In this document: positions 1 through 15,281 of the stretch, piece after piece
How the letters are laid out: every line of letters starts with the position of its first letter
How positions within the stretch are numbered: the stretch's first letter is position 1
IMG/VR virus record: IMGVR_UViG_3300037462_000828
Span: 32,001-96,000 of that record
DNA from: a virus
DNA length: 64,000 nucleotides
Strand: one strand, 5' to 3'
Notes under the pieces: generated by a model
Seen by the model: only the letters and a program-made list of their open reading frames with translations
Told to the model about the DNA's origin: nothing
Database searches by the model: none
Translations under genes and position numbers: made by a program

Positions 1-293
1 GCCGCCGCGTACTCTTTGCGGGCCCGAACGCGCCCCCAGCCCTGGCGGCCGCCGAGCCGAGAGCGGGCGAGCCGCTCGGCCGCGACGGCGGCCAGCGTGT
101 CGGCGTGGCCCTCGAACTCGCACACGTGCATCTCGGCCTCGGCGTAGTCGCCGAGCAGCGCCGTGCGGGCCTCGGGGGCGAGCGGATCGCCCCGGTCGTA
201 GAGACGGCTCGCGAGCGCCGTGGCGCGCGCAATCGCCTCGGCGAGGTCGGCGGGTCGGGCGTTCGGGTCGGCGGAAACGTTGGTCGCGGTCAT
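1..293 (-). CDS. hypothetical early protein (partial, runs off window start; MTATNVSADPNARPADLAE...)
   Basis: ATG at 293 preceded by AGAAAGACAAGGGGAC, which is shared with the gene starting at 3507; open frame to window edge. Confidence 0.6.
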   Translation of the reverse strand, partial: MTATNVSADPNARPADLAEAIARATALASRLYDRGDPLAPEARTALLGDYAEAEMHVCEFEGHADTLAAVAAERLARSRLGGRQGWGRVRARKEYAA

Positions 294-329
294 TGTCCCC
301 TTGTCTTTCTGGCGGCGTCGGCGCCGCCC

Positions 330-372
330 CTCACGCGGCAAAGCCCCCGGGCGCTTGCGCACGCGGGGGCGG
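330..372 (-). repeat. class A structured intergenic repeat copy 1 (GC hairpin with GCAA loop + TTTGCCGCGTGAG)
   Basis: 43 bp identical to 13734-13776. Confidence 0.85.
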
Positions 373-390
373 CAGAGGGGCGGGCGTTCG

Positions 391-663
391 TTAGGCAGTC
401 GAAAATCGGTCGAGCTCGTAGCCGTGCGCCTTCGCGGCCAGTTCGGCGAGTGAGTAAGCTTTTTCTCGCAGGGTCGAGGTGGGCGCGTTCCGGCCGATTT
501 CGGCGCGGAAGCACGAGTAGAGCCGGCCGCTACCGAGGTAGGTGACCTCGACGATGGCGGAGCGAGCAGAGCGACGCTCGAAGGTGGCCCACGCGAGCAA
601 ACGAACGGGGGCCGACTTGGGAGCTACGCCGGGGGAGCGGAGGGTTTCGGGGCAGGTCGTCAT
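391..663 (-). CDS. hypothetical protein
   Basis: ORF bounded by class A repeats; ATG at 663. Confidence 0.55.
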   Translation of the reverse strand: MTTCPETLRSPGVAPKSAPVRLLAWATFERRSARSAIVEVTYLGSGRLYSCFRAEIGRNAPTSTLREKAYSLAELAAKAHGYELDRFSTA

Positions 664-671
664 GTGGGCTT

Positions 672-714
672 CTAACGCCCGAAGCCCCAGGCTTGCGCTC
701 TGGGGCGGGGGCGG
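672..714 (-). repeat. class A structured intergenic repeat copy 2
   Basis: GCCCCAGAGC-GCAA-GCCTGGGGC-TTCGGGCGTTAG; near-identical to 13994-14036. Confidence 0.85.
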
Positions 715-731
715 CAGGAGAGGTGGTCGAG

Positions 732-950
732 TCACGTTTTGAACGTGATTGCGCGCATTGAGCCGATCCGTTGGCTGCTTCCCCGCCGCACGACGCCACG
801 CACAGGGAAGCGCACCATGACCTCGGCGCCAGGCTCGAGCCCAAGGAGCCGAGCGTAGTTTTGCGCCGCTTCCTTCGCTTTTTCAGCGGGCGAACGAACC
901 CAATAGCCGACCCGCGAAACGAGCACTTCAAACGAACGTAGTTGCGCCAT
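732..950 (-). CDS. hypothetical protein (MAQLRSFEV...)
   Basis: RBS GGAGGGTGAGACG-ATG, near-identical to that of the gene starting at 13961. Confidence 0.6.
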   Translation of the reverse strand: MAQLRSFEVLVSRVGYWVRSPAEKAKEAAQNYARLLGLEPGAEVMVRFPVRGVVRRGSSQRIGSMRAITFKT

Positions 951-984
951 CGTCTCACCCTCCGCTGCGCCCTCGGCGCCGCCT

Positions 985-1032
985 CTCACGCGCCGAAGCC
1001 CCAGGCCCGGGGGAGGGCTCTGGGGCTCGGCG
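985..1032 (-). repeat. class A structured intergenic repeat copy 3
   Basis: CGCCGA-GCCCCAG...CTGGGGC-T-TCGGCG-CGTGAG hairpin. Confidence 0.75.
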
Positions 1033-1045
1033 GATAGCGGGGCGC

Positions 1046-1351
1046 TCAGACGGCGGAGCACTCCCACGCGCCGTAGTAATACGACCCGCTCTCGACGCCG
1101 CGGCGCGAGACGGGGCCGCCGTCGGGAACGAACACGAGCCGGTCGGCCCGCTCTTCGGCGGGGATTTTCGACACTTGGTAGACGTCCAGCCGACGTAGCT
1201 CGATGGTCGACGACGCGTGCAGCGCCAGTGCGGCCGCGTCGAAGGCGGCCTTGCCGAGGCCGGAGGCGGCGCGAATGGCCTTGACTTGGGTCGTCTCGGT
1301 GACCGAGGAGCGGACGGAGCGCAGGGCAGAGAGGACGGCGGCGGTGTTCAT
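1046..1351 (-). CDS. hypothetical protein (MNTAAVL...)
   Basis: ORF directly downstream of class B promoter. Confidence 0.6.
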   Translation of the reverse strand: MNTAAVLSALRSVRSSVTETTQVKAIRAASGLGKAAFDAAALALHASSTIELRRLDVYQVSKIPAEERADRLVFVPDGGPVSRRGVESGSYYYGAWECSAV

Positions 1352-1375
1352 GGGGCCTCGGTAGTTCTCGCCGGC

Positions 1376-1427
1376 GGTCTCGCCCGCCGACAACTAGAAC
1401 ATACGTCCGAGTGGCGGACTTGTAAAG
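1376..1427 (-). promoter_or_regulatory. class B sigma70-type promoter/operator + conserved leader
   Basis: TTTACA-N17-TATGTT, dyad in spacer, leader GTTGTCGGCGGGCGAGACC. Confidence 0.8.
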
Positions 1428-1428
1428 G

Positions 1429-1719
1429 TCAAATCGACATCGGCTCGACCGTCCAGGCGCCCGACGAGTCGGGGGAGGCCTCGGCCGGGTCGGGCGCGGC
1501 GGGCCAGTAGCAGAGGGCGTGGCCGGCGAGGCAGACGGTCGCGGTCGCGCCGGCGCGGGCGAGGGCCCGGGCGGCCGCCATCGCGGCGCCCTCGTCGCCG
1601 CCGGAGGGCTCGACGCGGGGGCGGCCCCCGGGACCGCAAAGCCGAACGGTGTAGGCCGGCGCGGGGGCCGGCGCGGGGCGCCCGAGGCGGCGGGCGAGTC
1701 GTCGTACGAGTGCGAGCAT
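1429..1719 (-). CDS. hypothetical protein
   Basis: ORF fits the minus-strand gene tiling. Confidence 0.45.
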   Translation of the reverse strand: MLALVRRLARRLGRPAPAPAPAYTVRLCGPGGRPRVEPSGGDEGAAMAAARALARAGATATVCLAGHALCYWPAAPDPAEASPDSSGAWTVEPMSI

Positions 1720-1803
1720 GGTCCCTAGTTCTTCCCGAGCCCGCCCCCTCCCCCGGCGGGCCCTTCCTGCGGTTGCTATACTACGCCCCCCCCCGGGAGC
1801 GCT

Positions 1804-2244
1804 TCAGTCGGCCCAGGCCCGGGCGCCCCACCCCCGGGCGCGCGCGGCCCGCACGAGGGCGGGGATCATCTGCGACCGGGGCGTTACCTTCGGGCCGCGC
1901 TTGCGGTACTGCGGCGATCGCTCTTGCGGGTGCTCGCGGCAGAGCCGCGAGAGCGCGGCGCCGTCGGCGGCGGTCAGCCGGTAGTCGAGCCGCGCGACGT
2001 CGCCGGCCGGGCGGTCGACGGGGTCGAGGGGCCAGCGCTCGGCGGCGGCCGACCGGACGAGCAGCCCGAGCAGGAACGATTCGCTCGCGCCGAGGGCGGC
2101 CGCGAGTTCGGCGAGGCGCCGGCGGTCGCCCGCCTCGAGTTCGCAGGTCGAGTGCGTCTTCGTGCCCTCGCTCGCCGGGGCGCGCGCGCGGCCCCGGCCG
2201 CCGGCTCTCGAGAGGGTTTTCGGGTCGCTTCGGTCGTCGGTCAT
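1804..2244 (-). CDS. putative tandem ribbon-helix-helix (CopG/MetJ-like) DNA-binding protein
   Basis: two strand-helix-helix-like segments (STCELEAGDRRRLAELAAALGASESFLLGLLVR; LDYRLTAADGAALSRL...SQMIPALVR). Confidence 0.45.
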   Translation of the reverse strand: MTDDRSDPKTLSRAGGRGRARAPASEGTKTHSTCELEAGDRRRLAELAAALGASESFLLGLLVRSAAAERWPLDPVDRPAGDVARLDYRLTAADGAALSRLCREHPQERSPQYRKRGPKVTPRSQMIPALVRAARARGWGARAWAD

Positions 2245-2274
2245 GATCGGGGGCGGGCCTCCTGCCCGTCGGTC

Positions 2275-2302
2275 AACCTACGCCCCTATGGCGTAGGGTC
2301 AA
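2275..2302 (-). promoter_or_regulatory. class B promoter with perfect operator dyad
   Basis: TTGACC-N16-TAGGTT; CCTACGCC-ATAGG-GGCGTAGG. Confidence 0.8.
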
Positions 2303-2312
2303 GGCCCCGCCC

Positions 2313-2523
2313 CTAGCGACCGCGGCCGGGCCCGAGCACGAGCGGCATCCGGGCGGCCGCCTCGCGGCGGGCGGCGTTGGCGGCGCGTCGTGCGGCGTCG
2401 GCGCGGCGCGAGGCCTCGAGGCTGCGCATCGCGACGCGGATCGCCTCGGCGCCGAGGTCGAGCTTGGCGAGGGTCGGGGAAGGGGCGGGGAACATGCTGC
2501 TAACGGCGGTACGGGTCGACATG
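2313..2523 (-). CDS. hypothetical protein (MSTRTAVSS...)
   Basis: ATG in the ACCCCATG start context shared by several early genes. Confidence 0.45.
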
Positions 2524-2578
2524 GGGTTCGTTGGTCTCAAACCTAACGAACGGCCCGGGCCGCCCGGGCCCGTAGGGG

Positions 2579-3106
2579 CTAATCGACGAGGGCCGGCGGC
2601 GCCGGGTCGGCCGGGGGCGGCTCGTCGCGGGGGCAACGCCCGGCGCATTGGCCAAAAACGAGCGGGCTGCCCCCGCTCGCGATCCACCGAAGCGGCCCCG
2701 GGTCGCTCTGCCCCCAATGGCTCGGCGGCTTGAGCAGGCACCGGGCGGCGGGCGAGACCAGTTCGAGCCGAAGCCGGTTGCGCGAGCGGCGCACGCCGTC
2801 GAGGCCTTCGGGGTCGGCCGGCTGTACGCGGCTAGGGCACGCGGCGCGGTCGGTCGGGGGCGGCTCGCCCTCGAGAACCTCGCACGCGGCGATCGCGGCG
2901 ATCGCGGCGTCGGGGCCGACGAGGGCGACGAAAAGCTGCGCCGCGCCGAACGCGTCGGCGCCCTCCTCGAGGGTCTCGCCCGAAGGAACGTCGCGCCAGT
3001 CGATGACCGAACCGCGCCCGGCCGTCACGCGCGGGCCGTGAAGCACGGCGCCGGCGAGCAGGTGCCGCGCCGCGCGCCGAACGGCCGCGAAGGTCTCGGC
3101 GCTCAC
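2579..3106 (-). CDS. hypothetical protein
   Basis: GTG start overlaps upstream stop; normal amino-acid composition. Confidence 0.5.
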   Translation of the reverse strand: MSAETFAAVRRAARHLLAGAVLHGPRVTAGRGSVIDWRDVPSGETLEEGADAFGAAQLFVALVGPDAAIAAIAACEVLEGEPPPTDRAACPSRVQPADPEGLDGVRRSRNRLRLELVSPAARCLLKPPSHWGQSDPGPLRWIASGGSPLVFGQCAGRCPRDEPPPADPAPPALVD

Positions 3107-3507
3107 GTCGCCGACTCCGAGCGGAGCGTCGGAGGGCAGGGTTCGGACGGGCGCCCCTCGGGGGGCGGCGCGCGCCAGCCGTCGCAAGGGGCGCCGTCCT
3201 CGTAGCGGGCGAGCACGCGCCCCGTGCGACGGTCGAACGCCTCGACGACGCCCGAGCGGTCGAGGCTCTCGGCGAACGCGTCGACGACGACCTCGGCGCG
3301 GCCCTCGTCGGTGCCGGGCCAGCCCCCGTCGAGTTCGACCTTGTAGTCGGTCCCCGCGTCGCCCCCGGTCGTCTCGGTCACGCGCAGGCCGTAGCGCGGA
3401 AGGCGCGCGTAGAGGTCGGCCCGTAGGCTGTCCTCGCGGCTTACCTCGGCGAGGTCGGCGGCCTCGGCCGCGAGGCGCTCGCGCTCGTAGGAAACGGTGC
3501 TTGTCAT
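3103..3507 (-). CDS. hypothetical protein (MTSTVSYERE...)
   Basis: AGAAAGACAAGGGGAC-ATG shared with the gene at 293. Confidence 0.6.
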   Translation of the reverse strand: MTSTVSYERERLAAEAADLAEVSREDSLRADLYARLPRYGLRVTETTGGDAGTDYKVELDGGWPGTDEGRAEVVVDAFAESLDRSGVVEAFDRRTGRVLARYEDGAPCDGWRAPPPEGRPSEPCPPTLRSESAT

Positions 3508-3549
3508 GTCCCCTTGTCTTTCTCTGCGGGTCGGCTTCGGCGCCGACCC

Positions 3550-3594
3550 CTCACGCGGCAATGCCCCCGGGCGCCTTGCGGGGCGCGGGGGCGG
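3550..3594 (-). repeat. class A structured intergenic repeat copy 4
   Basis: GCCCCCG...GCAA...CGGGGGC-ATTGCCGCGTGAG. Confidence 0.8.
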
Positions 3595-3599
3595 TCAGG

Positions 3600-3917
3600 T
3601 CAGGCGGCGACGTCGCAACGGAACGCGTCGGCGCCAGAGGTCAGGTGACCGAGAACGGTGCGGCGAATCGCGTCGAACGCCTTGCCGGCCTCCGTGGGCG
3701 GGAACATGTCGGCCCCGCCGGACAGCCCGTACGTCCACCCGCCCGCGCGGTAACGCACCTGCCAGCCCTCGGCGCCGCTCTTGCGGCTGGCGGCGGCGGT
3801 GCGCGTCTGTCGGGCGCAGACGATGAGCACGAAATCGAACCGAGGCATCGCCTTGGCGGCGAGCGCCACATCCCAAACCTTCGCCGAAATCGCCGCCTGA
3901 ATCTCCGCTTTCGTCAT
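3600..3917 (-). CDS. hypothetical protein (MTKAEIQAAI...)
   Basis: between class B promoter and class A repeat; AAGGA RBS. Confidence 0.65.
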   Translation of the reverse strand: MTKAEIQAAISAKVWDVALAAKAMPRFDFVLIVCARQTRTAAASRKSGAEGWQVRYRAGGWTYGLSGGADMFPPTEAGKAFDAIRRTVLGHLTSGADAFRCDVAA

Positions 3918-3942
3918 GGGGTCTGGTTCCTTTTTGCCGCCG

Positions 3943-3993
3943 GGTCTCGCCCGCCGACAACGAGAACCTACGACCTAGTGTCGTAGTTGTAAA
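3943..3993 (-). promoter_or_regulatory. class B promoter/operator + conserved leader
   Basis: TTTACA-N17-TAGGTT; CTACGAC-ACTAG-GTCGTAG perfect dyad. Confidence 0.85.
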
Positions 3994-4631
3994 GGCCCGT
4001 CCGGTCGATTATTGCCGAGGGCCTCGGCGGGCGAGCGCCCGAGCCACCAACCCGGCGACGTGCCGTCGGGCCGGTAGAGGGCCATGACGTCGGCGAAGAT
4101 GGGCGTAGGTACGAGCCCCCCGACGGTCTCCCAATCGCCGCGGCGGGCGGCCTCGCGCACGGCGGTCGAACTCGCGGCCGGGGGCTGAGGCAGGTGAAAA
4201 TACCGATAGCCCTTGCGCCCAACGATGATCGGCGGGGCGAGCGCGCAGAGTTCGGCCCAGTAGGCCTCGCCCCAGGTCGGCCCCCGCTCGTACGTGTCGG
4301 CGCCGACCGCGAACCGAAGGGCCCAGTCGGTGTGCTCGGCGAGCAAGTGCTTGACCGTGCGGAGCGTCAGGCTCTCGCCGCCGAGCCGGCCCTCGACGTC
4401 GCTCACCTCGGCGCGGGGCACCCAAGCGAAGGCCTTGCGGGCCATCGCGAGGCGGGCCTCGAAGGGGGCGAGGCTCTTGCCGGCCTGCTGGTAGCACGGC
4501 ACGACGAGCACGCGGTCGACCTCGCCCGAGAGGGCGATGCTCGCGGCGGCGACGACGTGCCCGACGTGGGTCGGGTCGAGTGAGCCGCCGTAGAGGGCGA
4601 CGCGCGTCGGGCGGGGAGAGGGGGGCGTCAT
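3975..4631 (-). CDS. nadD: nicotinate/nicotinamide-nucleotide adenylyltransferase (NadD family)
   Basis: YGGSLDPTHVGH (HxGH motif), R..M, S.TL.T, VGAD and SST.VR motifs. Confidence 0.85.
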   Translation of the reverse strand: MTPPSPRPTRVALYGGSLDPTHVGHVVAAASIALSGEVDRVLVVPCYQQAGKSLAPFEARLAMARKAFAWVPRAEVSDVEGRLGGESLTLRTVKHLLAEHTDWALRFAVGADTYERGPTWGEAYWAELCALAPPIIVGRKGYRYFHLPQPPAASSTAVREAARRGDWETVGGLVPTPIFADVMALYRPDGTSPGWWLGRSPAEALGNNRPDGPLQLRH

Positions 4632-5004
4632 GGCCGGAGCCTGGCGCGCCGCCGGGGCGGGCCGCGCGCCGGGGGCCGCTACCGCGCGGCGCCGAGGCAC
4701 CACGCGACGAGCCGGTCGTGCTCCTCGGCGGCGGGCCCCTCGATCGAGACCGTACGCGCGAGCGCGTCGGCGGCCGCCCCCGGGGGCGCGCCGTCTCCGC
4801 CGCCGAAGCGCTTGGTCGACGGCGGCTCGTCCTCGCCCCCGGCCGGCGGGGGGTCGGAGCGGGGCGCCGCCGGGAAGGCCTGGCGGTAGGGCCCCGGCGG
4901 GGGGTCGGAGCGGGGCGCCGCAGGCCGAGGCCGGGCCCGCGGTGGCTTGGCGGCGCCGAGGCCGCACAGGGCCGCGAGGGCGGCGAGGGGCGAACGGCGC
5001 ACGG

Positions 5005-5643
5005 CTACGCCCCCTCGGCCGGCGCGGGCGGCAGGTTGCAGATGACGACGTAGGCCCGAACGGGGTGCTTGGTCTTGAGGTTTCGAAACCCAATCATCGC
5101 GCGCCGGAAAACGTCGCGGTCGACCGAAACGTCGACGCGCCAGCCGGCGGCGTCGTCGCTTTGAAAGACGAGCCGCGCGCGCCGGCGCCACGAAGCGCCA
5201 TGGCACGCGCCGAAGTCGTAGTCGGGCTCGCGCGCCTCGACGAGCGTAAAGGGTTCGGCCGCATCGCCTCGTTCGCCCGCAACGCTTGCGAACCGCGCGA
5301 GGGCCCCGGCGAGCGCCCCCGACTGCTCGGCCGACGATAGGGCGGTGGCGGCAAGCGCGAGCGGCCGCGCGTCCTCGGCCTCGCGGCACCGGGCCTCGAA
5401 ATAGGAGGCCTTGGTCGCGAGCAGCCAGACGAGCACGCGGTCGCCGACGCCCGCGGCCGTATCGGTCGGCTCGACGGCGAAGCGCTCGACGTGGTCGGGC
5501 CACCAGCGGGGGCACGCGACGCGGAGCGCCCAATGGTCGACCGGGTCGCGCTCGACGGTAAAATCTGCGGCCCGCACGTCGGTGCGCGTCGGCCGGGCGG
5601 AAAGCACGCGGTCGACGACGAGGTCGGCGAAGGTCTTGGCCAT
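5005..5643 (-). CDS. hypothetical protein (MAKTFADLVV...)
   Basis: ATG overlaps upstream stop. Confidence 0.55.
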   Translation of the reverse strand: MAKTFADLVVDRVLSARPTRTDVRAADFTVERDPVDHWALRVACPRWWPDHVERFAVEPTDTAAGVGDRVLVWLLATKASYFEARCREAEDARPLALAATALSSAEQSGALAGALARFASVAGERGDAAEPFTLVEAREPDYDFGACHGASWRRRARLVFQSDDAAGWRVDVSVDRDVFRRAMIGFRNLKTKHPVRAYVVICNLPPAPAEGA

Positions 5644-6332
5644 CAGCCGACCCCGAGAAGCGCGATCGACGCGCCGTAGCGGCGCACGGCCTCGGAGCAA
5701 CCGTCGCGGTCGTCGGCGATGCGCGCGCGGAGCACGCGGCGCAGGCCCTCGAGGTCGGCGGCGAGCCCGATCGGGCGGTTGTCGACGCAGAATACCTCGC
5801 GCTCGGCGCCAGACAAAAACGTCGCGCCGATCGACGAAGGCCGGACGAAAAAGCCGACCGTCGGGCCGTCGCGCTCGATGCTTAGGGCGAGGTCGGGACG
5901 CTTGGCGAGCCCGGGGGCGAAGGCGAGTTTTGCCGCCTCGAGAAGGCGGCCGGTCTTGTACGGGTCGAGGGGGGCCTGGTCGTCGGTCATGGTTGGTTTC
6001 TCCGCCGAGGGGTACGGCCCGCCTCGGCCGGCGCGTAAGGGCTTTTTCGGGAAGGGCAGCGGAATCGTTCGGGCGGCGGGGTCGCCGGGCGGGGCGCCCT
6101 CGGCCATCGCGTCGAGCGCGTCGGCGAGGGCGTCGTCCTCGGTGTCGAAGAGGTCGGGCCGCCCGCGCCCCGTCGGCAAACTGCGGGCGTGGGCGCCGAC
6201 GAGAAGCTGCCCGAGGCGCAGCGCGGGACAGGCGAGCCACGCGGCGAGCAGGGCCTCGACGACGAGGCGCTTTTGCGCGGGCTCGGCGGCGCGCCCCGGG
6301 GGCGGCCCGGGGAAGTGGCGCGGCGGGCTCAT
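5643..6332 (-). CDS. hypothetical protein with probable internal start at 5990
   Basis: one open frame; class C promoter at 6013-6039 precedes in-frame ATG 5990. Confidence 0.5.
   Translation of the reverse strand: MSPPRHFPGPPPGRAAEPAQKRLVVEALLAAWLACPALRLGQLLVGAHARSLPTGRGRPDLFDTEDDALADALDAMAEGAPPGDPAARTIPLPFPKKPLRAGRGGPYPSAEKPTMTDDQAPLDPYKTGRLLEAAKLAFAPGLAKRPDLALSIERDGPTVGFFVRPSSIGATFLSGAEREVFCVDNRPIGLAADLEGLRRVLRARIADDRDGCSEAVRRYGASIALLGVG
6013..6039 (-). promoter_or_regulatory. class C promoter motif
   Basis: CTTAC-N16-GCCGTA. Confidence 0.65.
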
Positions 6333-6790
6333 CCGAACGGGCAGCTCTCGGGCGCTGGCTCGACGCCGAGTTCGTCGCACGCGTCAAGGATGGCCTGGTG
6401 TTGGCAGCACGCTTCGGTAAACCGGGCCGTGGCCGCTTGGGCCGACCGGTCGGCCTCCTCGGCGTCGCGGCCCGAACGCTTGGCGAGGTTGGCGACGAGG
6501 TCGAGTACGGCGAGCAGCGGCTCGTCGTTGCGATCGGATCCCCACGCGTGCGCAACGCCCGACGCGACGATCGCCGGGCCCTGCTCGTCCTCGGGGCAAT
6601 GGCCATCGAACGTTTCGACCAGTTCGGCGACGTACTGGCCCGACGAGCCCGGCGCCCCCGGGTCGAGCAGCCGAAGCTCGAACGAGCGCCCCGTGTAGGC
6701 CGACTCAACGGCGCGCTCGAGCACGGCGATGGCCTTGCCGAGGCCGCGCACCCGGCCCTCGACGGGGGCCGTTCGGTAGGCGGGTATCAT
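6329..6790 (-). CDS. hypothetical protein (MIPAYRTAP...)
   Basis: ATGA overlaps with both neighbours. Confidence 0.55.
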   Translation of the reverse strand: MIPAYRTAPVEGRVRGLGKAIAVLERAVESAYTGRSFELRLLDPGAPGSSGQYVAELVETFDGHCPEDEQGPAIVASGVAHAWGSDRNDEPLLAVLDLVANLAKRSGRDAEEADRSAQAATARFTEACCQHQAILDACDELGVEPAPESCPFG

Positions 6791-7431
6791 GGCGCGGCCT
6801 CGGGCGTGCGCGGCAGGACGGCGGTCCTCCCGGCGGCGTACGTCGCGGCCTTCGCCTCGCAGCGGCCGGCAAGGTAGCGCGCCGCCTCGTCGAGGGCGGA
6901 GAGCGAGCCGTCGTTGCGCACGACGACGTCGAAGATCGCGTCGGGCAGATCGCCGAGTTCGCGCTCGCTTTGGTGCGCGCCGGCGTCGCCCGCGAGCCCG
7001 GCCCCGGGCCGGACGATCCGAACGAGCAGGGCGCCGACGTCGGCGAACGCGAAGAGTTCGTTTTGAAAGCGCGCGTCGTCGAAGACGAGAAGGCCCGCGC
7101 CGCCGGCGGGCTCGTCGGCCTCGGCCATGCGGCGGGCGGCGTCGATCCAGACCCGCGGGTAGATCTGCCGGCCGACCTCGGTGCCGAGCTTCTGAAGCGC
7201 CTCGCGCGGCGTCAGGCACGTGCCGTCGGCGCGGGGGAAGCGCGGGTCGGGCCGGTTTCTCGCCTCGCTCGGGCCGTAGAGCTGCGCGTGCGAGAAGCCG
7301 AAGACAATCGCCGCCGCTTGCTTGAGCGGCGCCGCGAACGACGACCGAAGAAAGCCGTGGTTGCGTACGAGGGCGGTCGCGAGCGTGCTTTTGCCGGCGC
7401 CGGCGGCACCGGACAAGAGAATGACCTTCAT
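6787..7431 (-). CDS. deoxynucleoside monophosphate kinase
   Basis: GAAGAGKST P-loop, SFA.PLK, TPREALQKLGTEVGR, DDARFQNE, HQSE motifs. Confidence 0.9.
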   Translation of the reverse strand: MKVILLSGAAGAGKSTLATALVRNHGFLRSSFAAPLKQAAAIVFGFSHAQLYGPSEARNRPDPRFPRADGTCLTPREALQKLGTEVGRQIYPRVWIDAARRMAEADEPAGGAGLLVFDDARFQNELFAFADVGALLVRIVRPGAGLAGDAGAHQSERELGDLPDAIFDVVVRNDGSLSALDEAARYLAGRCEAKAATYAAGRTAVLPRTPEAAP

Positions 7432-7679
7432 GACTTGAACCTCACCCTTTCGTTGACGGCCGCGAGCACGCTCGCGACCAGCGGCCAGAACCCGCGCGCG
7501 GGGTAGGCCATGACCTCGAACCGTTCGTCGACGCCGGTGACCAGGCACCGGCCGCGGCACGCCTGGGGCATCGCCTCGCCCGGGTCGCGCGCGCCGACGC
7601 CCTCGATTTCGGCCTCGCCGAGCACTTCGTCGAGGGCCTCGACGCCGCCGGGCCGCAGAATGACTTTGACGATGATCAT
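7428..7679 (-). CDS. hypothetical protein
   Basis: small ORF in operon tiling. Confidence 0.5.
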   Translation of the reverse strand: MIIVKVILRPGGVEALDEVLGEAEIEGVGARDPGEAMPQACRGRCLVTGVDERFEVMAYPARGFWPLVASVLAAVNERVRFKS

Positions 7680-7692
7680 CTCGCGTGGCCTT

Positions 7693-8613
7693 TCAAAACT
7701 CTAGAACTTCGTTGACCGGCTCGGCCGCGCGCGGCCGCAGCGGCGCGGGCCGGTAGCCTGCTGTTACGACGACCTCGAGCACGTCGCCGCGCGCGTCGGC
7801 GTCCGCGGCGATCGAGCGGGGGGCGGGCAGGGGCTCGACCCGAAACGGGTGCCCGGCGTACCAGCCCGTGACCTTCTCGGTCAGACCGTTCGAGGCCATG
7901 ACCTTCGCGCCCCGGCCGGCGGCGGCGCGCAGGGCCGCGGCGAGCCGCGCTTGGTCCTTGTCGCCGAACCCCTCGGCGGTGTACGCGGTGAACGATTTCT
8001 TGCCCGGCGGCGCGTCGTAGGGCGGGTCAGCGTAGACGAAATCGCCGGCCCGCGCCGCCGCGACGGTCGCGTCGAACGGGCAGCAGACGAGTTCGGCGCG
8101 CGTGCGGCGCAGGGCGTCGGAGCAGGCGTAAAGGTTCGCCTCGCCGAGGTCGGGGGGGAGCCGCTTTTTCCCCCAGGGCGTGTTCATCCGGCCGTCCCCC
8201 TTGTTGACCCGATAGAGCCCGTTGTAGCAAAGCCGGTTGAGGAAGATCATCCGGCCGGCGACCTCGCCCGGCTCGAGCGCATCGGGGTCGAGAGCGCGCG
8301 CGGCGTAGTAGTCGGCCTCGGCGATGACAACCCCCTCGGGGGCGAAGCGGCGGAAGGCGTTGGCGACGCCCGAGGGGTCGTCGCGCACGGCCTCGTAGGT
8401 CGTGACGAGTTCTCTGTTCGCGTCGGCGAGCAGGGGGCGCCGGCCGTCGAGCCGGCCCTGCGCGGCGAGCTCCCAAAAGAGGGCGCCCCCGCCGAGGAAG
8501 GGCTCGACGTAGCGGCCGCGCCAGCCACCGCGCGGCAGGCGCGCGAGGAGCGACGGCATGAGGCCGCGCTTGCCGCCGGGCCAGCGCAGGAAGGGCTCGG
8601 GGCGGGCGGTCAT
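7693..8613 (-). CDS. dam: Dam-family (D12 class) N6-adenine DNA methyltransferase
   Basis: RWPGGK, YVEPFLGGGA, YNGLYRVN, DPPY motifs. Confidence 0.92.
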   Translation of the reverse strand: MTARPEPFLRWPGGKRGLMPSLLARLPRGGWRGRYVEPFLGGGALFWELAAQGRLDGRRPLLADANRELVTTYEAVRDDPSGVANAFRRFAPEGVVIAEADYYAARALDPDALEPGEVAGRMIFLNRLCYNGLYRVNKGDGRMNTPWGKKRLPPDLGEANLYACSDALRRTRAELVCCPFDATVAAARAGDFVYADPPYDAPPGKKSFTAYTAEGFGDKDQARLAAALRAAAGRGAKVMASNGLTEKVTGWYAGHPFRVEPLPAPRSIAADADARGDVLEVVVTAGYRPAPLRPRAAEPVNEVLEF

Positions 8614-8864
8614 TCGGGCGCGCCGACGTTCTTGCACTGCTCGGTTCGCTCGCGCTCGACCTCTTCGAGCGCGCCGCGGGCGCAGCGCAGGGCGGTCTTG
8701 AGCCGGTCGACGGCCAGGCGGGCGCGCTTGACGCGTTCGGCGGCGCTCGGGTGAACGCGCTTGTGCGTTCGGTTGACGACGTCTAGATCGCGGCTCGCCA
8801 AGAACGCCGCGCTGGCCGCGCGACCGGCGAGTTCCGACGCGTTTGGGTTCGGGTCTGGTTTCAC
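8610..8864 (-). CDS. hypothetical protein
   Basis: GTGA/ATGA overlaps with neighbours. Confidence 0.5.
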   Translation of the reverse strand: MKPDPNPNASELAGRAASAAFLASRDLDVVNRTHKRVHPSAAERVKRARLAVDRLKTALRCARGALEEVERERTEQCKNVGAPE

Positions 8865-9613
8865 GCAGCCTTCTTTCTCGAGGCCTTGGGCTTCGGGGCG
8901 CGCTTGGCTTTCGGCTCGGCCGGGCGCGCGACCCGATCGGCGAGCACCTCGTGCGGGGCGACGACGATGACCTTGACGCGCGCGCCGAAGTGCGCCGCGT
9001 CGACGCGGCGGATCGGGTTGAACCCGGCGATGCGTCGGTCGTCGGGAAACGCCCACCCGTTGAGCCCGTCCCCGATCGCCTTGAACACGTTGTCGAGATC
9101 GGCGTTGTCGGCGGCAAGCGTTACGTCGGCCTCGACGAAGTAGCGCGCGCGGGGGTCACGCCAGCCGCCGGGGGGCCAGCCCGAGAAGGCCATCGCGGCG
9201 GCGGCCGACGCGCGCACGGCGGCCTCGTAGTCGAGCGTGCGCTTCGGCGTGTAGGTGAGCGACCCGCCGCGCACGACCCGCGGGCGCTCTTTGGCGACGG
9301 GGCGCGCCTCGACGACGAAGTCGAGCGTGGCCAATCCCAGGCCGAGAGCACGGGCTTGCTTGTGGAGGCCGGCGCGCTCGTAGGTCGGGGCCCAGTCGCC
9401 GAGCGGCCAGGCGAACCGAGGATCGGTCGACGCGCGCAGGGCGGGCACGCCGGGCGGCGGGGCGGGCTTGGCTGGCCGGCGTCGTCGCTTGCCATTCGCG
9501 CCGCCCTTGCGGGCCCGCGGCGGCCCCTTGGCAGGCGCCGCCTTGGCCGGACGGGCCGGAGGGCGGCCGCCGGTCAAGAGGGCCGCGGCGGCGTCGCCGT
9601 GGCTCTTGCGCAC
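8861..9613 (-). CDS. rusA: RusA-family Holliday junction resolvase with N-terminal extension
   Basis: PVAKERPR, YTPKRT.DYE, DLDNVFKAIGDGLNG.AFPDDR.I. Confidence 0.85.
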   Translation of the reverse strand: MRKSHGDAAAALLTGGRPPARPAKAAPAKGPPRARKGGANGKRRRRPAKPAPPPGVPALRASTDPRFAWPLGDWAPTYERAGLHKQARALGLGLATLDFVVEARPVAKERPRVVRGGSLTYTPKRTLDYEAAVRASAAAAMAFSGWPPGGWRDPRARYFVEADVTLAADNADLDNVFKAIGDGLNGWAFPDDRRIAGFNPIRRVDAAHFGARVKVIVVAPHEVLADRVARPAEPKAKRAPKPKASRKKAA

Positions 9614-9645
9614 GGCCTCGACGAGATGAAGGGAAGGTGGGCGCC

Positions 9646-10152
9646 TCACGGCCGGCGCCCCCGAGCCGCCGACACAAAAACGGGGCTGGCCGCGCGTCGC
9701 TTTTCGTCGTCGATGCGCCGGCCCTGGCGCGCTCGGTAGTTGAGGCGCTCGATCAGCCGGTCGAGTTCGGCCACGCCTTCGAGCACGTCGGCGAGTCGGA
9801 CCTTGCCGCCGTGCTTGTCGTCGGCGTCGACGTCTCTTAGCCGGTGCCCCATCATCTCGAGCCACGCCCCCGTAGGCAGGCCGTCGGCGAGGGCGAAGAT
9901 CTCCTCGAGTACGGCGGCGTCGACCGGGACCGTCGGACGGCCGAGGAACGGGTCGGCGATGATTTCGCGCAGGCCAGGAGGGTAGAGCTCGGCCTCGGCC
10001 TCGCGCGCGAGGTGCCGTACCTGGGCCATCGTCTCGGGCTTCGGCTGCGGGCCGGGCGGCGAGACCCGGCCCACGCCGTGGCAGACGTCGCAAGGCACCT
10101 CGGCCTTGTGACCTTTGCCGCCGCAAAACTGGCAAGCGACGAGGGCGGTCAC
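9646..10152 (-). CDS. protein with DnaJ-type CxxCxGxG zinc finger
   Basis: CQFCGGKG and CDVCHGVG. Confidence 0.55.
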   Translation of the reverse strand: MTALVACQFCGGKGHKAEVPCDVCHGVGRVSPPGPQPKPETMAQVRHLAREAEAELYPPGLREIIADPFLGRPTVPVDAAVLEEIFALADGLPTGAWLEMMGHRLRDVDADDKHGGKVRLADVLEGVAELDRLIERLNYRARQGRRIDDEKRRAASPVFVSAARGRRP

Positions 10153-10403
10153 GACAGCCTCCGGTTTGCCCGGTAGACGATCCACCGGCGGTGCCGAGAC
10201 GAGCCGCCCTCCCAAAACGGGTAGCTCATCGCGTCGATCCAGTGCACCGACGCCCACTCGGCCCGGCCCCGTAGCCGGCGCTTCGCCGCGGCCAAGGCCG
10301 ACCGGAAGCGACGGTACACGCGCGGCAGCGTCGCGCCGTCGACGGCGACGCGCCAGCGGCCAAGGCCGCGGCGCGAGCACGAGAGTTTCGCGCGGCCGCT
10401 CAT
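10149..10403 (-). CDS. hypothetical protein
   Basis: overlapping start/stop tiling. Confidence 0.45.
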   Translation of the reverse strand: MSGRAKLSCSRRGLGRWRVAVDGATLPRVYRRFRSALAAAKRRLRGRAEWASVHWIDAMSYPFWEGGSSRHRRWIVYRANRRLS

Positions 10404-10615
10404 GCGGGCACCGCCGAGACTTCGCAGAGGCGCGCCCGGCGATCGCGGGCTCGGCGCACGATCTGGCAGATGCGGGCCGCCGTTACCCCGAGTTCGGCCG
10501 CCACCTCGACCTGTTTCTTGCCGCCCTCGACGGCGGCGAGAACGCGCGCGTCGCGCTCGATCGCCTCGGCGACGGTCGACGGGCGCGGGCAGGCCATGCT
10601 GAGGGGCGCGCTCAT
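10400..10615 (-). CDS. small helix-turn-helix protein
   Basis: GKKQVEVAAELGVTAARICQIV HTH pattern. Confidence 0.7.
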   Translation of the reverse strand: MSAPLSMACPRPSTVAEAIERDARVLAAVEGGKKQVEVAAELGVTAARICQIVRRARDRRARLCEVSAVPA

Positions 10616-10887
10616 CGGACGACCTCGTAGACAACGGCGCCGCCGGCGGTGCGCTCGCCGCGGCAGGTCGACCCGCACGGGACGACGCGGCCCGGGCCGC
10701 GCGGGGGGCGCAGCCGCGACTCGACGGCGCTTAGCCAAACGCCGCCGCCCGCGTCCTCGTAGAGGTTGCGCGGCGCGCTCGGGCTCGACGCCCGAAGGCG
10801 CCCCCCGGACGGGGGGAGTCGTAGCCCCCGGGCCCTCGGGCAACGTAGAACCGCGGCGCCTCGGCGCCCCTTCTCGCTCTCGACCAT
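10612..10887 (-). CDS. hypothetical protein
   Basis: follows class C promoter and AAGGAG RBS. Confidence 0.45.
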   Translation of the reverse strand: MVESEKGRRGAAVLRCPRARGLRLPPSGGRLRASSPSAPRNLYEDAGGGVWLSAVESRLRPPRGPGRVVPCGSTCRGERTAGGAVVYEVVR

Positions 10888-10936
10888 ATCGACCGCTCCT
10901 TTGCCGGCGCGCCCGCGCGCGCCCTCCGGTAAGGGT

Positions 10937-10963
10937 GACGGCCGACCGGGGGCGGCGCGTAAG
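10937..10963 (-). promoter_or_regulatory. class C promoter motif
   Basis: CTTAC-N16-GCCGTC. Confidence 0.55.
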
Positions 10964-11120
10964 GGCGCAAGCGCCCGGGCACCGACGAAACTCTACGGCC
11001 CGGCGGGTCGCTCGCCTCGCCGCCGGCCGAAGGGGGCCGGGCTCGGCGGCGGACGACAAAACGCCGACGCCCCGAGTCAGCGCTCGGGGCGTCGCGCAGG
11101 CGGCGGTGTCTCCCGGGCCG

Positions 11121-11523
11121 CTAGCCCGGGCTTGAGACGAGGGGCGTGACGTCGATCGTCGGCGCGTCGTGGTCGTCGTCGGGCTCGTCGGTCGTGCGGA
11201 ACGGCGGCGGCGCGATCGCGTTTGCCGCGGCGTGAAGCGGCGAGAGCCCGCAAAACGTGCGCTCGTTGCGCGGCACGTCGTCGTCATGGCGCCCGACCGT
11301 AATCGACGGTGACTTGGCGCGCGCCTCGGCGATGAGGGCGTCGCTCTGCCGCGAGAGCCGGGCGGCGCGCGCCGCTTCGGCCTCTGCCAGTTTGCGCCAC
11401 CAGCGCGCCTCGCCCCGGGCGAAGAGCAGCGCGCGCTCGGCGGCGACGCGCCGGCGGCGGTCGTCGAGCACGACGGCGAAAAGACCCCAGAGCACGAAAA
11501 ACGCAAGGCCGACGTAGATCATG
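11121..11523 (-). CDS. membrane-anchored hypothetical protein
   Basis: N-terminal hydrophobic helix IYVGLAFFVLWGLFAVVL. Confidence 0.6.
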
Positions 11524-11575
11524 GTTCCCAACCTTCCCTCTTGCGGGGGCGCCGAGCGCGCCCGCGTCTTTTGCC

Positions 11576-11601
11576 AACGGCCGCGCGGCGCGGCCCCTAA
11601 G
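11576..11601 (-). promoter_or_regulatory. class C promoter motif
   Basis: CTTAG-N15-GCCGTT. Confidence 0.7.
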
Positions 11602-11607
11602 TGCGTC

Positions 11608-11886
11608 TCAGCGATCGGCCTCGACGGCCGCGAGGGCCGCCTCGCGCGTCGGGTAGTACCCGTTTTTCGACCCGGGCAGATTGTCGTAGGCGTGGTGCGG
11701 GCACGGGCTGCCGCCGCCCCCGAAGAACTCGGCGCGCCAGGCGCCGACGAACAGCCCGTCGGCGGACGAGACGACCCAGTACGTTCGGCCGTCGGCGCGG
11801 GCGTAGACCTCGCCGGTTGACCAGTCGCGGAAGACCTTCGTGCCGGACGCGGGCGCCGACGCGTGGTCGCATTTCGTTGCCTTCAT
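11608..11886 (-). CDS. hypothetical protein (MKATKCDH...)
   Basis: ATG fused to the end of a class A repeat (GCGTT-ATG). Confidence 0.6.
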   Translation of the reverse strand: MKATKCDHASAPASGTKVFRDWSTGEVYARADGRTYWVVSSADGLFVGAWRAEFFGGGGSPCPHHAYDNLPGSKNGYYPTREAALAAVEADR

Positions 11887-11935
11887 AACGCCCGAAGCCC
11901 CCGGGCGCCGGTCAAGGCACGCGGGGGCCGGGCGT
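11886..11935 (-). repeat. class A structured intergenic repeat copy 5
   Basis: ACGCCCG-GCCCCCG...CGGGGGC-TT-CGGGCGT long bulged hairpin. Confidence 0.8.
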
Positions 11936-11948
11936 CGGGCGGGATCGG

Positions 11949-12248
11949 TCAGAAGGCCTTGCCCTCGACGATAAGGATCGTTTCGTCGGCGACCCGGTCA
12001 ACTTCCTCGGCGAGGTCGCTCCCGTCGGCCTCGACGGAGCCGCACGGGTGCACGACCAACTCGCCCACCGTCGGGCCGTCCGCTCCCTCTTTGCGAAGCA
12101 AAACCGCGAAGCGAGGCGACCGGGCGGCGCGCGCGTCGGCCTCGGGGTCCCAGCCGACGCGCGCGGTGGCGCCGATCTTGGCGGCGGCGAGCACAACGGC
12201 GATGAGGCTATCTTTGGCGACGCGGGTAGGCTTGGAAACGGTCGACAT
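11949..12248 (-). CDS. hypothetical protein
   Basis: AGGAG RBS, ACCCCCATG start. Confidence 0.65.
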   Translation of the reverse strand: MSTVSKPTRVAKDSLIAVVLAAAKIGATARVGWDPEADARAARSPRFAVLLRKEGADGPTVGELVVHPCGSVEADGSDLAEEVDRVADETILIVEGKAF

Positions 12249-12482
12249 GGGGGTCTATCTCCTGCGCGGTTCGGGGGGGGTGTCGGTTCAGGTCAGGCCG
12301 GGGTCGTAGGCGGAGACCCACGCGTCGGCGCCGGCTTCGTCCCACGGTCGGCCGAGAAAGGCCGCGTCGCGCTCCGTCCGGTAGGCGCCGAGGGCCTCGG
12401 CCTCTTCGGGCGACTCGCGGTGGCTCACGTCGTCAATCGGGTCGTAGGTCGTCACGGTCGGCTGCTCGTTCGGTTCGTCGGG

Positions 12483-12533
12483 GGTCTTGCCCGCCGACAA
12501 CCAAAACCTACGACCGAGTGCCGTACTTGTAAA
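12483..12533 (-). promoter_or_regulatory. class B promoter/operator + conserved leader
   Basis: TTTACA-N17-TAGGTT; TACGGC-ACTCG-GTCGTA. Confidence 0.85.
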
Positions 12534-12622
12534 GGGGGCGCCCGTGCGATTGTTGCGGCGAGGCTTCTTTCGGCCCTGGCGTCGCTACCGCGTCGAGGCG
12601 ATTCCCGGGCCGGCGAGCGAGG

Positions 12623-13066
12623 TCAAGGGCTGGGCGTCTCGCCCCCGCCCCCGGTATCCCAACCAAGCAAGAACCGCCCGACAGGAGGGCGGGGCGGGAC
12701 GACTACCTGCCGCAGTTCCCACTCGGGCGCGGCCGTAACGTCGATCTGGTCGACGACCTGACGGGCGATCTCGCCCGCCTCCCTCAGGTAGATCGTGGCA
12801 TCGAAGCGCAGCCATATGGCCCTCTCGGGCCCCAGCCTGGGGAGAGAGAGACGGGCGATCGATCGGTCGGCCCAGCCGACACGCCGAGTAGCGTCGGCCA
12901 ACTTCTCGATCGCCCAGGCCCTCGCCGGCCCGGTCTCCCGGCCGCGCACCTCGCGTTCCAGAGATGCCGCAGAGCACCTCGCGAGGTGCTCTTGGGCACA
13001 CTCGATCATTCCCGCGGCGTGGAGCCGCAACTCCCAAATCTCCGGCCAGTTCTTGTCGTGTTGCAT
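12623..13066 (-). CDS. hypothetical protein
   Basis: GAGGAG RBS; normal composition. Confidence 0.6.
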   Translation of the reverse strand: MQHDKNWPEIWELRLHAAGMIECAQEHLARCSAASLEREVRGRETGPARAWAIEKLADATRRVGWADRSIARLSLPRLGPERAIWLRFDATIYLREAGEIARQVVDQIDVTAAPEWELRQVVVPPRPPVGRFLLGWDTGGGGETPSP

Positions 13067-13177
13067 CTTCTCTCCTCGCCGGCATCGCCGGCATCGCCGG
13101 ATGTCGTGGTTGCGGCCGAGCCGCGCCGTCGAGGCCCCACGCGGGGGCGCCGGCGGCGGGGAGCGCCCGCGCTCGGG

Positions 13178-13723
13178 TCAGCCGAGGCGGGGGATCAGCG
13201 CGTTGACCGACTCCCACACCAGCGCGGCCGGGGCGTAAAAACGCACGGGCTCGCCGACCGAGCCCCGACGGCGGTCGACCCGCACGCCGGCGTCGCGCAG
13301 GGCGACGAGCAGGGCGCGCGAGTGGCTCGCCGCGTCGCGGGCGGCGTAGTCGATCGCGTCCGATAGGCTCGGCGTCGACGCGCCCCACGGCGCTTGCTCC
13401 TTCAGCCCGCACCACGCGGCGATCTCGGGCCACTCGGCCCAGCCGCGGCCGGCGCGCCAACGGCCGGCGAGGACAACGAGCGTGTACGCGAGGCCGAGCC
13501 CCTCGTAGTCGACGCCGCCTCGGCCGGGCCCGAGGTCGGCGAGGGCGTCGCCGTCGTCGGTCGCGTGGTAGTCGTCGACCGTGCAGATAAAAAAGTCGTT
13601 GACGCACCCGGTGTCGCGCAAGGCGATCATCGCCTCGGCGCGCTCGGCGGCCGAGGCCGGGCGGCCCTCTCGGATGTGGGTCAGGGGAACGTCGCGCCAG
13701 CTGGGGTTCTTGGTCTTCGGCAT
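13178..13723 (-). CDS. hypothetical protein (MPKTKNPSW...)
   Basis: starts 10 nt after a class A repeat. Confidence 0.65.
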   Translation of the reverse strand: MPKTKNPSWRDVPLTHIREGRPASAAERAEAMIALRDTGCVNDFFICTVDDYHATDDGDALADLGPGRGGVDYEGLGLAYTLVVLAGRWRAGRGWAEWPEIAAWCGLKEQAPWGASTPSLSDAIDYAARDAASHSRALLVALRDAGVRVDRRRGSVGEPVRFYAPAALVWESVNALIPRLG

Positions 13724-13733
13724 GGGGTGGTCT

Positions 13734-13776
13734 CTCACGCGGCAAAGCCCCCGGGCGCTTGCGCACGCGGGGGCGG
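13734..13776 (-). repeat. class A structured intergenic repeat copy 6
   Basis: identical to 330-372. Confidence 0.85.
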
Positions 13777-13793
13777 TTCAAAGGGTCGGGCGG

Positions 13794-13961
13794 CTATTGC
13801 GCGCGTGTAAAAAGAACGATGTTGTCGAGCCGCGTGACGGCTCGCCAGGGCTTCGGGGTCTGCCCAGGATAGCCACGGAACCGGCGAAGCGTTGGGCGTG
13901 CCTGCAAAATTATGCCGGCGTCCGCGTCGTGCCAAACCAAAAGCCGAGTCGTTCGCTTCAT
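13794..13961 (-). CDS. small hypothetical protein (MKRTTRLLVWHD...)
   Basis: GGAGGGTAAGACG-ATG; flanked by two class A repeats; lower GC. Confidence 0.55.
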   Translation of the reverse strand: MKRTTRLLVWHDADAGIILQARPTLRRFRGYPGQTPKPWRAVTRLDNIVLFTRAQ

Positions 13962-13993
13962 CGTCTTACCCTCCGAAGCGCCATCGGGCGCCC

Positions 13994-14036
13994 CTAACGC
14001 CCGAAGCCCCAGGCTTTCGCTCTGTGGCGGGGCGTC
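13994..14036 (-). repeat. class A structured intergenic repeat copy 7
   Basis: as 672-714 but loop GAAA instead of GCAA. Confidence 0.85.
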
Positions 14037-14059
14037 GGTCGGGCCCCCCGGCCCGCCTT

Positions 14060-14182
14060 TCAGAAGTCGTCGTCTTCGTCGGCGTCGTAGGTCCCGAGGC
14101 CCTGAAGGCTCTCGTCGAGGGCCTTCCAAGCCTCGATCTCTTTGAGGCTCTTTTCGGCGCGTTCTTTTTCGGAGGCGTTCAT
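14060..14182 (-). CDS. 40-aa acidic peptide (MNASEKERAEK...YDADEDDDF)
   Basis: below ORF-track cutoff; between class B promoter and class A repeat; ACCCCATG start. Confidence 0.6.
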   Translation of the reverse strand: MNASEKERAEKSLKEIEAWKALDESLQGLGTYDADEDDDF

Positions 14183-14211
14183 GGGGTCGGTCTCTTTCGT
14201 TCGGCGGCGGC

Positions 14212-14262
14212 GGTCTCGCCCGCCGACAACGAGAACCTACGACCGAGTGGCGTACTTGTAAA
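14212..14262 (-). promoter_or_regulatory. class B promoter/operator + conserved leader
   Basis: TTTACA-N17-TAGGTT; TACGCC-ACTCG-GTCGTA. Confidence 0.85.
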
Positions 14263-14272
14263 GGCCTGCCGA

Positions 14273-15273: not shown

Positions 15274-15281
15274 CGGTCGGC

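Follow-up and report, generated by a model that had tools for sequence, protein, structure and literature searches.

The stretch of DNA examined here (the window, 64,000 nucleotides) spans bases 32001-96000 of the linear, 111,726-bp IMG/VR virus record IMGVR_UViG_3300037462_000828, which CheckV rates as 87% complete and which represents an uncultured phage with a G+C content (GC) of ~74% along its whole length. Structural genes for a terminase, a portal, a MuF-like minor head protein, a protease, and a major head protein are present in the record, which also codes for an intein-bearing DnaB helicase, ThyX, and a sigma factor. From window position -7000 to ~23000, the minus strand carries all genes, and the products of this arm include a cytidylyltransferase-like protein, a deoxynucleoside monophosphate (dNMP) kinase, a Dam methylase, RusA, an HNH protein, DUF488 and DUF5131 proteins, and MazG, alongside many small genes without a family. 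Between genes of this arm lie seven copies of a structured repeat, termed class A here, and in close relatives of the phage, gene content changes at these copies.

All seven copies (c1-c7) are intergenic and on the minus strand, each after a stop codon and before the next start, where a preliminary description of the window had placed them; the tail pattern GGGGCWTYGS(N)GCGTKA has 7 matches in the window vs 0 in 100 shuffles. The copies are as follows:

330-372, minus strand: c1; hairpin at 343-370 (-22.5 kcal/mol), tail UUUGCCGCGUGAG at 330-342, then a second hairpin and a ribosome-binding site (RBS) block to 294
672-714, minus strand: c2; hairpin at 684-706 with a GCAA loop, tail UUCGGGCGUUAG, no clear Shine-Dalgarno sequence before the AUG at 663
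985-1032, minus strand: c3; hairpin at 998-1026 with a hexaloop, hybrid tail UUCGGCGCGUGAG, then a second hairpin and RBS GGAGGGUGAGACG to 951
3550-3594, minus strand: c4; hairpin at 3563-3592, tail AUUGCCGCGUGAG, then a second hairpin and a c1-type RBS block to 3508
11884-11935, minus strand: c5; hairpin at 11897-11928 with a hexaloop, tail UUCGGGCGUUAUG, which includes the start codon of the next gene (11886-11884)
13734-13776, minus strand: c6; hairpin at 13747-13774, 43 bp identical to c1
13994-14036, minus strand: c7; hairpin at 14006-14028 with a GAAA loop and one A.G mismatch in the base stem, tail UUCGGGCGUUAG

Read in the minus-strand sense, class A consists of a 7-bp base stem, GCC(C/A)C(C/A)G...C(G/U)GGGGC, above which a one-base bulge or mismatch is followed by a 2-5-bp upper stem and a 4-6-nt loop, and of a conserved tail 3' of the stem, UUYGS(S)GCGUKA. 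The hairpins fold at -10 to -25 kcal/mol, with 9-12 bp in the hairpin proper in most copies; they begin 7-31 nt past the stop codon, and the next start lies 10-55 nt beyond the hairpin. The first 8 nt after the stem hold 2 U in five copies and 3 in c1 and c6. A covariance model scores the seven copies at 53-58 bits and the next match in the window at 13.5 bits, and a regular-expression search over the entire 111,726-bp record found no extra copy with the tail. Rfam gave no window matches at gathering scores and one chance match (E 0.36) in 1-15000, and no sequence complementary to the tail (≤1 mismatch) was found elsewhere in the 112 kb, and a trans-acting partner was rejected. No copy lies in window 4000-11500, the long middle part of overlapping starts and stops and recognizable enzymes. 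The region immediately to the left of the window holds, at L001:270-330 (minus strand; genome 31060-31120), an eighth, degenerate class-A-like hairpin that the model scores at 15.5 bits, with an 8-bp inner stem and AAAA loop within GCCCGG/CCGGGC and a UUUU tail, UUUUCCGCGUC, that leads directly into an AUG.

The copies are mosaics of stem and tail types, with c5 combining a CG stem and an A2 tail and c3 carrying its hybrid tail. The 43-bp identity of distant copies that had been reported is that between c1 and c6, and the RBS sharing noted for 294/3508 and for 948/13959 is also real: c1 and c4, and likewise c3 and c7, share a second hairpin and RBS block after the tail, and the genes behind these blocks are not paralogues. 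In c2, c5, and c6 a clear Shine-Dalgarno sequence is missing, and an AUG lies inside the tail in c5 and in the elements L021a, L029, and L057 from other contigs. Pairing between leader and tail adds 5-8 bp in c1, c2, c3, c5, and c7 and does not occur in c4 or c6; as a conserved feature, this lower stem was rejected, being limited to some copies and uncompensated in relatives.

The preliminary description had proposed asking whether gene content changes exactly at the repeats, and in three independent sources it does. L021 (1312 bp) is ~90-95% identical to window 13571-14877, which holds the HNH gene, the promoter repeat D1, a 40-amino-acid (aa) gene, and c7. The similarity ends at the last base of the c7 tail and returns at the first bases (5' edge) of c6, and between these points L021 holds an intact, unrelated 69-aa open reading frame (ORF) whose AUG is inside the tail. 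The match of L039 (1050 bp) to window 1352-1609, at 88%, ends at the start codon that follows D1. Past this point L039 diverges: its ORFs are different ones, and an A2-type and an A1-type copy, with an RBS block as in c3 and c7, stand between them. The third source comprises contigs built with k=31 from X2 and X3, freshwater runs of one study, where, as throughout X2-X5, window parts without cover were counted as absent only where a contig joins across. One X2/X3 contig runs from 301 through 17 new bases, a c4-like copy (3532-3592), and 20 new bases to 1046, such that a single copy stands in place of c3, gene, c2, gene, and c1, and the relative has two genes and two copies fewer. A second joins 13758, inside c6, to 13996, in the first bases of c7, and thus lacks g2, the gene between them; in a third, 303 other bases replace 3483-3963 (c4 and the preceding gene), with one joint end within D1. 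The slot between c7 and c6 therefore occurs in three states: with g2, with another gene (L021), and with none (X2/X3). c5 is simply a conserved copy.

Class A units with their linkers make up ~4-5% of the 14 kb, yet account for 6-7 of ~20 well-supported joint ends. The breakpoints fall at either edge of the element, with no single fixed base, and those in L021 and L039 are independent of the X2/X3 contigs. As gene content changes at the repeats in three independent sources, the original picture of a cassette array separated by a structured repeat, akin to the promoter-early stem-loops (PeSLs) of T4-type phages, stands. Apart from these, the relatives in runs X3 and X4 cleanly lack an 84-aa gene, of overlapping start and stop, at window 8610-8864 (joint 8609/8861), and as no class A copy is near this joint, single-gene indels also arise without repeats.

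Upstream of the class A copies, and also in L021 and L039, is the D1 repeat, which has four minus-strand copies in the window and is a sigma70-like promoter (TTTACA-17-TATGTT), followed by a hairpin in the 5' untranslated region (5'UTR), a Shine-Dalgarno sequence, and a small gene:

1369-1428, minus strand: D1 repeat 1, heading gene 1351-1046, c3, gene 950-732, c2, gene 663-391, c1, and the next gene
3936-3995, minus strand: D1 repeat 2, heading gene 3917-3600, c4, and gene 3507-3103
12476-12535, minus strand: D1 repeat 3, heading two small genes and then c5
14205-14264, minus strand: D1 repeat 4, heading the 40-aa gene 14182-14060, c7, gene 13961-13794, c6, and gene 13723-13178

In every D1 operon the first class A copy comes after gene 1 or 2, and copies stand in series in operon 1 (c3, c2, c1) and operon 4 (c7, c6). 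No sigma70-type -35/-10 pair was found in or beside the class A copies, and a reading of GCGTKA as a promoter of the extracytoplasmic function (ECF) type was rejected for want of a conserved -35. The second hairpin of four class A copies resembles the D1 5'UTR hairpin. D1 itself contains a dyad, TACGNC-N5-GNCGTA, across the spacer and -10 box, and a GGCGG..CCGCC hairpin at the predicted mRNA 5' end. A 504-aa sigma factor encoded at window 50555-52069, with regions 2 and 4 and an N-terminal Cro/C1-type helix-turn-helix domain, probably drives later promoters; a T7-type phage RNA polymerase was not found in a search of the phage, for which the control genomes were equally silent.

Three genes are bracketed on both sides by class A copies:

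13794-13961, minus strand: cassette gene g2, 55 aa, G+C content at third codon positions (GC3) 0.68, between c7 and c6
732-950, minus strand: cassette gene, 72 aa, GC3 0.66, between c3 and c2
391-663, minus strand: cassette gene, 90 aa, GC3 0.78, between c2 and c1

Their GC3 of 0.66-0.78 compares with 0.81-0.94 for every other gene in window 1-16400, and their overall GC is 0.61-0.66. Exactly these three low-GC3 genes are missing in the X2/X3 relative. Judged by composition, the low GC3 would fit recent entry from lower-GC phages. Other metagenome contigs encode homologues of the 90-aa gene, at 66% and 59% identity; the 181-aa gene after c6 found no homologue besides itself. None of the cassette genes matched a known family, and their earlier labeling as host-takeover genes is a guess.

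Covariation within class A was assessed in a family of 23 members, the 7 copies described here and 16 from other contigs, chosen from the matches by eye, for which the search pattern had left both positions of base-stem pair 6 free. At this pair the members have G-C (9), C-G (8), or A-U (6), with no mismatch, and the covariation score was reached by 0 of 500 shuffles. Although the upper stems are of differing sequence and length, in most members their folding is better than that of shuffles. These data agree with the proposal that the stem interior varies while pairing is kept. The conserved GNRA loop proposed with it did not hold up, as such loops occur in four or five copies only, with hexaloops in c3, c5, and the best fold of c4. 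The hairpin is no more stable in sense than in antisense (10 against 10), and G.U pairs were thus uninformative for assigning the strand, which is fixed solely by the tail on one side and by the orientation shared with the genes. An in-frame second stop codon in the tail was also considered, present in 5 of 7 copies (p ~0.045) but in 9 of 20 of the wider family, and was dropped.

Exact-pattern scans returned 5 viral, 82 metagenome, and 68 genome loci, with one match each, most of them generic hairpins rich in G+C, AAGCCCCNG...CNGGGGCTT in form. A subset that also has the class A tail consists of true look-alikes (L005, L007, L012/L074, L013/L033/L057/L077, L029, L030/L061, L032, and L047), which sit in phage contigs between genes of one orientation; look-alike modules occur at a contig GC of 61-67%. 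In L047 the element comes directly after a major-head-protein gene, and L029 and L005 have primase/helicase genes aboard; among the look-alike contigs, only L007 has proteins in common with this phage. As a repeat, the element was found in no bacterial genome among 185,579 species genomes, which gave single generic hairpins and one unrelated repeat in a metagenome-assembled genome (MAG). Searches of IMG/VR for relatives by a dNMP-kinase query, the D1 promoter pattern, and a geneC alignment found none, and no RNA sequencing run was found to contain window 200-10199. The MAG repeat is an identical low-GC hairpin that matches the pattern at seven loci (L103, L108, L122, L128, L149, L152, and L156) of a MAG labeled Parafilimonas (DASUGF01); in most of these it lies ~100 bp from the locus boundary, apparently near contig ends, and it resembles an unrelated dispersed repeat that interrupts assembly. 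Several Streptomyces species (L112, L121, L126, L131, L140, and L157) carry a hairpin whose sequence and flank, GAAGCCCCCGATCACGGGGGAACAATCGGGGGCTTCGCGCGTGA, are conserved almost base for base and which is unrelated to the phage.

The record also holds other hairpins. In the late region, a ~30-bp hairpin (L160:15211-15280, plus strand; genome 111211-111280) directly follows the major head protein gene with no U tract behind it, its 131-nt fold having an energy of -90 kcal/mol and a z of -5.96. Behind the stop codon of a late gene of 202 aa stands a GCCCCGG..CCGGGGC hairpin (L160:6085-6125, plus strand; genome 102085-102125) whose tail, UUCGCGCGUCG, is class-A-like, and an A tract ahead of this hairpin places a canonical U tract on the opposite, gene-free strand. 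In the early arm the most canonical terminator-like site, which is not class A, is a 12-bp hairpin followed by GCGUUUUGUC at window 11065-11094 (minus strand), between genes 11121-11522 and 10612-10887. The DnaB-type helicase lies at window 25392-28028 and is split by an intein-like insert, a LAGLIDADG homing endonuclease.

With moderate confidence, we favor a reading of class A as a leaky terminator and/or 3'-end stabilizer with a ribosome-binding linker, which also serves as short homology for recombination. We infer that the hairpin acts on mRNA: it would form in early transcripts started at the four sigma70-type D1 promoters, where it would act as a leaky, U-poor terminator for a fraction of them and/or as a barrier to 3' exonucleases, with promoter-proximal small genes expressed above distal ones. 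The linker would give the following gene its translation start, and first-gene messages would be hairpin-capped at both ends, the D1 5'UTR hairpin being the other cap. At the DNA level, the 45-90-bp near-identical copies may act as short homology between co-infecting relatives or between copies, and single ORFs inserted, deleted, or replaced by such exchange would land in a ready-made expression context, a PeSL-like logic. We favor the leaky terminator or stabilizer because class A sits where such elements sit, because the hairpin is far enough past the stop codon to form during ribosome termination, because the phage's own late hairpins have poor or no U tracts, and because Streptomyces 3' ends map to low-U hairpins (PMC8269248). 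As for the mechanism of recombination, we favor homologous exchange, general or phage-encoded, in view of breakpoints that lie at either element edge and not at a fixed base, of copies that are themselves stem and tail mosaics, of the failure to find an integrase or Y1 transposase, and of the RusA and several homing endonucleases that the record encodes.

Several observations weigh against this interpretation. Of the features of a canonical intrinsic terminator, class A has the GC-rich, sense-strand hairpin just past a gene and lacks the U-rich tract: only 2-3 U occur in the first 8 nt of the tail, and a terminator scan that requires 5 T in 8 flags no class A copy. Such hairpins have a parallel in Term-seq data from 72%-GC Streptomyces, in which many 3' ends lie at stable hairpins with <3 U and read-through is partial (PMC8269248). 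Like these "I-shaped" terminators of GC-rich bacteria, or HS-U-lack ends, class A is a stable GC hairpin after a stop codon with 2-3 U in 8 nt, at non-terminal positions within operons; unlike class A, they do not recur as copies of a single sequence and lack a conserved tail (PMC8269248). A plain terminator leaves unexplained why the tail is conserved in phages without shared proteins. Because c3, c2, and c1 stand in series with no promoter between them, they must be leaky or read through, and the equal stability of the hairpin on both strands is also compatible with a hairpin at the DNA level. With regard to recombination, joints occur away from class A as well (2624/2894, 5055/5349, 8609/8861, 9986/10067, and 11990/12216), and in the X2/X3 contigs, built with k=31 from a single study, false joins at repeats are possible; new bases at the X2/X3 joints, and a depth close to zero over 535-1068, speak against such joins. 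An RNA role for class A is plausible, and the point of interest is its conserved tail.

The main rival to the leaky terminator or stabilizer takes up that tail, proposing that a host or phage endoribonuclease cuts early transcripts in its single strand, between class A and the second hairpin, so that the upstream message ends in a protective hairpin and the downstream one starts with a hairpin or almost at its AUG. We consider this possible but unlikely. A cut in the tail would explain why the tail sequence is kept where a terminator requires none, and also the copies that lack a clear Shine-Dalgarno sequence (c2, c5, c6) or have an AUG in the tail (c5, L021a, L029, L057), and the four copies with a second hairpin after the tail, like that of the D1 5'UTR, would suit it. 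Intergenic cutting of early mRNAs in T7 is a precedent, and there too hairpins lie between successive early genes on a transcript made by host RNA polymerase from few strong promoters. The T7 sites for RNase III are stems of ~20 bp, about two turns, often with an internal loop, whereas the class A stems have 9-12 bp in most copies, short for RNase III, and are lengthened by leader-tail pairing in some copies only. Moreover, no RNase III gene is present in the record and no tail-complementary trans RNA was found. Owing to the breakpoints, the role in recombination holds whether the hairpin terminates or is processed.

It is very improbable, in our view, that base stem and tail form an operator at which a phage or host RNA-binding regulator (a translational repressor, antiterminator, or similar) controls the neighboring genes jointly. 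Conservation of base stem and tail as sequence, with upper stem and loop free, and the clustering of copies in operons of one promoter family would suit such a regulator, but conservation is missing from the loop, where proteins usually make contact, and look-alikes are present in phages without any protein in common with this one; no candidate protein was identified, and the neighboring genes have no known family. Most improbable of all are dedicated DNA recombination sites, either attC-like folded single strands or targets of a Y1 transposase like repetitive extragenic palindromic (REP) elements, at which a site-specific enzyme would move cassettes. Integron attC sites are imperfect palindromes that border promoter-less single-gene cassettes and carry paired core sites, R' (GTTRRRY) and R'' (RYYYAAC). 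Class A resembles them in being an imperfect palindrome at the borders of promoter-less single-gene cassettes, in the presence, absence, and replacement of genes at the elements, in a hairpin equally stable as DNA on either strand, and in certain tails that read GCGTTAG or GCGTTATG, which had prompted the attC comparison. GTT is, however, missing in 4 of 7 tails (c1, c3, c4, and c6 read GCGTGAG), and the inverse core RYYYAAC is in no leader. There is no fixed crossover point: breakpoints lie at either edge, and copies are mosaic, as homologous exchange would give. Tyrosine recombinase (PF00589) had no match in the 111,726-bp record, with all 14 control genomes positive, although at 87% completeness its absence is unproven; Y1 transposase (PF01797) likewise had no match in the record. 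With integrase, Y1 transposase, and attC core sites not found, the attC reading is unsupported.

The closest known system is that of the PeSLs, mobile regulatory cassettes in which a promoter, a stem-loop, and a Shine-Dalgarno sequence lie between orphan genes of T4-type phages (Arbiol et al. 2010, PMC2839356; Comeau et al. 2014, PMC4122927). There, the stem-loops terminate transcription, and recombination between PeSLs leads to indels that separate close relatives (PMC2839356; PMC4122927). Mini-circles from exchange between neighboring motifs are a further mark of PeSLs. Both systems consist of a repeated intergenic GC stem-loop with a Shine-Dalgarno sequence, which lies in a plastic early region among small genes of unknown function; in both, the stem-loop is interpreted as a terminator or attenuator, and indels or replacements in relatives end at the modules (here L021, L039, and the X2/X3 joints 301/3532, 3592/1046, and 13758/13996). 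Class A differs in having no promoter, one defining feature of a PeSL, which is placed instead in the separate D1, one per operon, and in its conserved 3' tail, which PeSLs do not have; its carrier is a 74%-GC uncultured phage whose likeness to T4 is indicated by nothing here. Layout alone is shared with the start-associated sequences (SAS) of cluster K mycobacteriophages, which are 13 bp long (GGGATAGGAGCCC), lie at the start site, and are preceded by 17-bp inverted repeats as extended SAS (ESAS; Pope et al. 2011, PMC3203893). In these high-GC phages too, a conserved RBS/start block has just upstream of it an inverted repeat that is imperfect and variably spaced, with one orientation for all copies and a function that is unknown. 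The sequences are unrelated to class A, and from genome to genome ESAS go with particular gene families, whereas it is class A that keeps its place while the intervening genes change.

The PeSL idea, that regulatory repeats double as recombination linkers through which phages can try out new small genes, is extended by these findings beyond T4-type coliphages to a module of different build in an uncultured phage of 74% GC, and the c7-c6 interval offers a single slot observed with a gene, with another gene, and with none. A further reading, speculative and in our judgment improbable, is that the module is a portable docking site common to unrelated high-GC phages, its tail targeted by a nuclease or recombination protein, which would permit integron-like exchange without an integrase. 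If that were true, the low-GC3 cassettes and the look-alikes in phage contigs of 61-67% GC would be traces of gene traffic across phage lineages.

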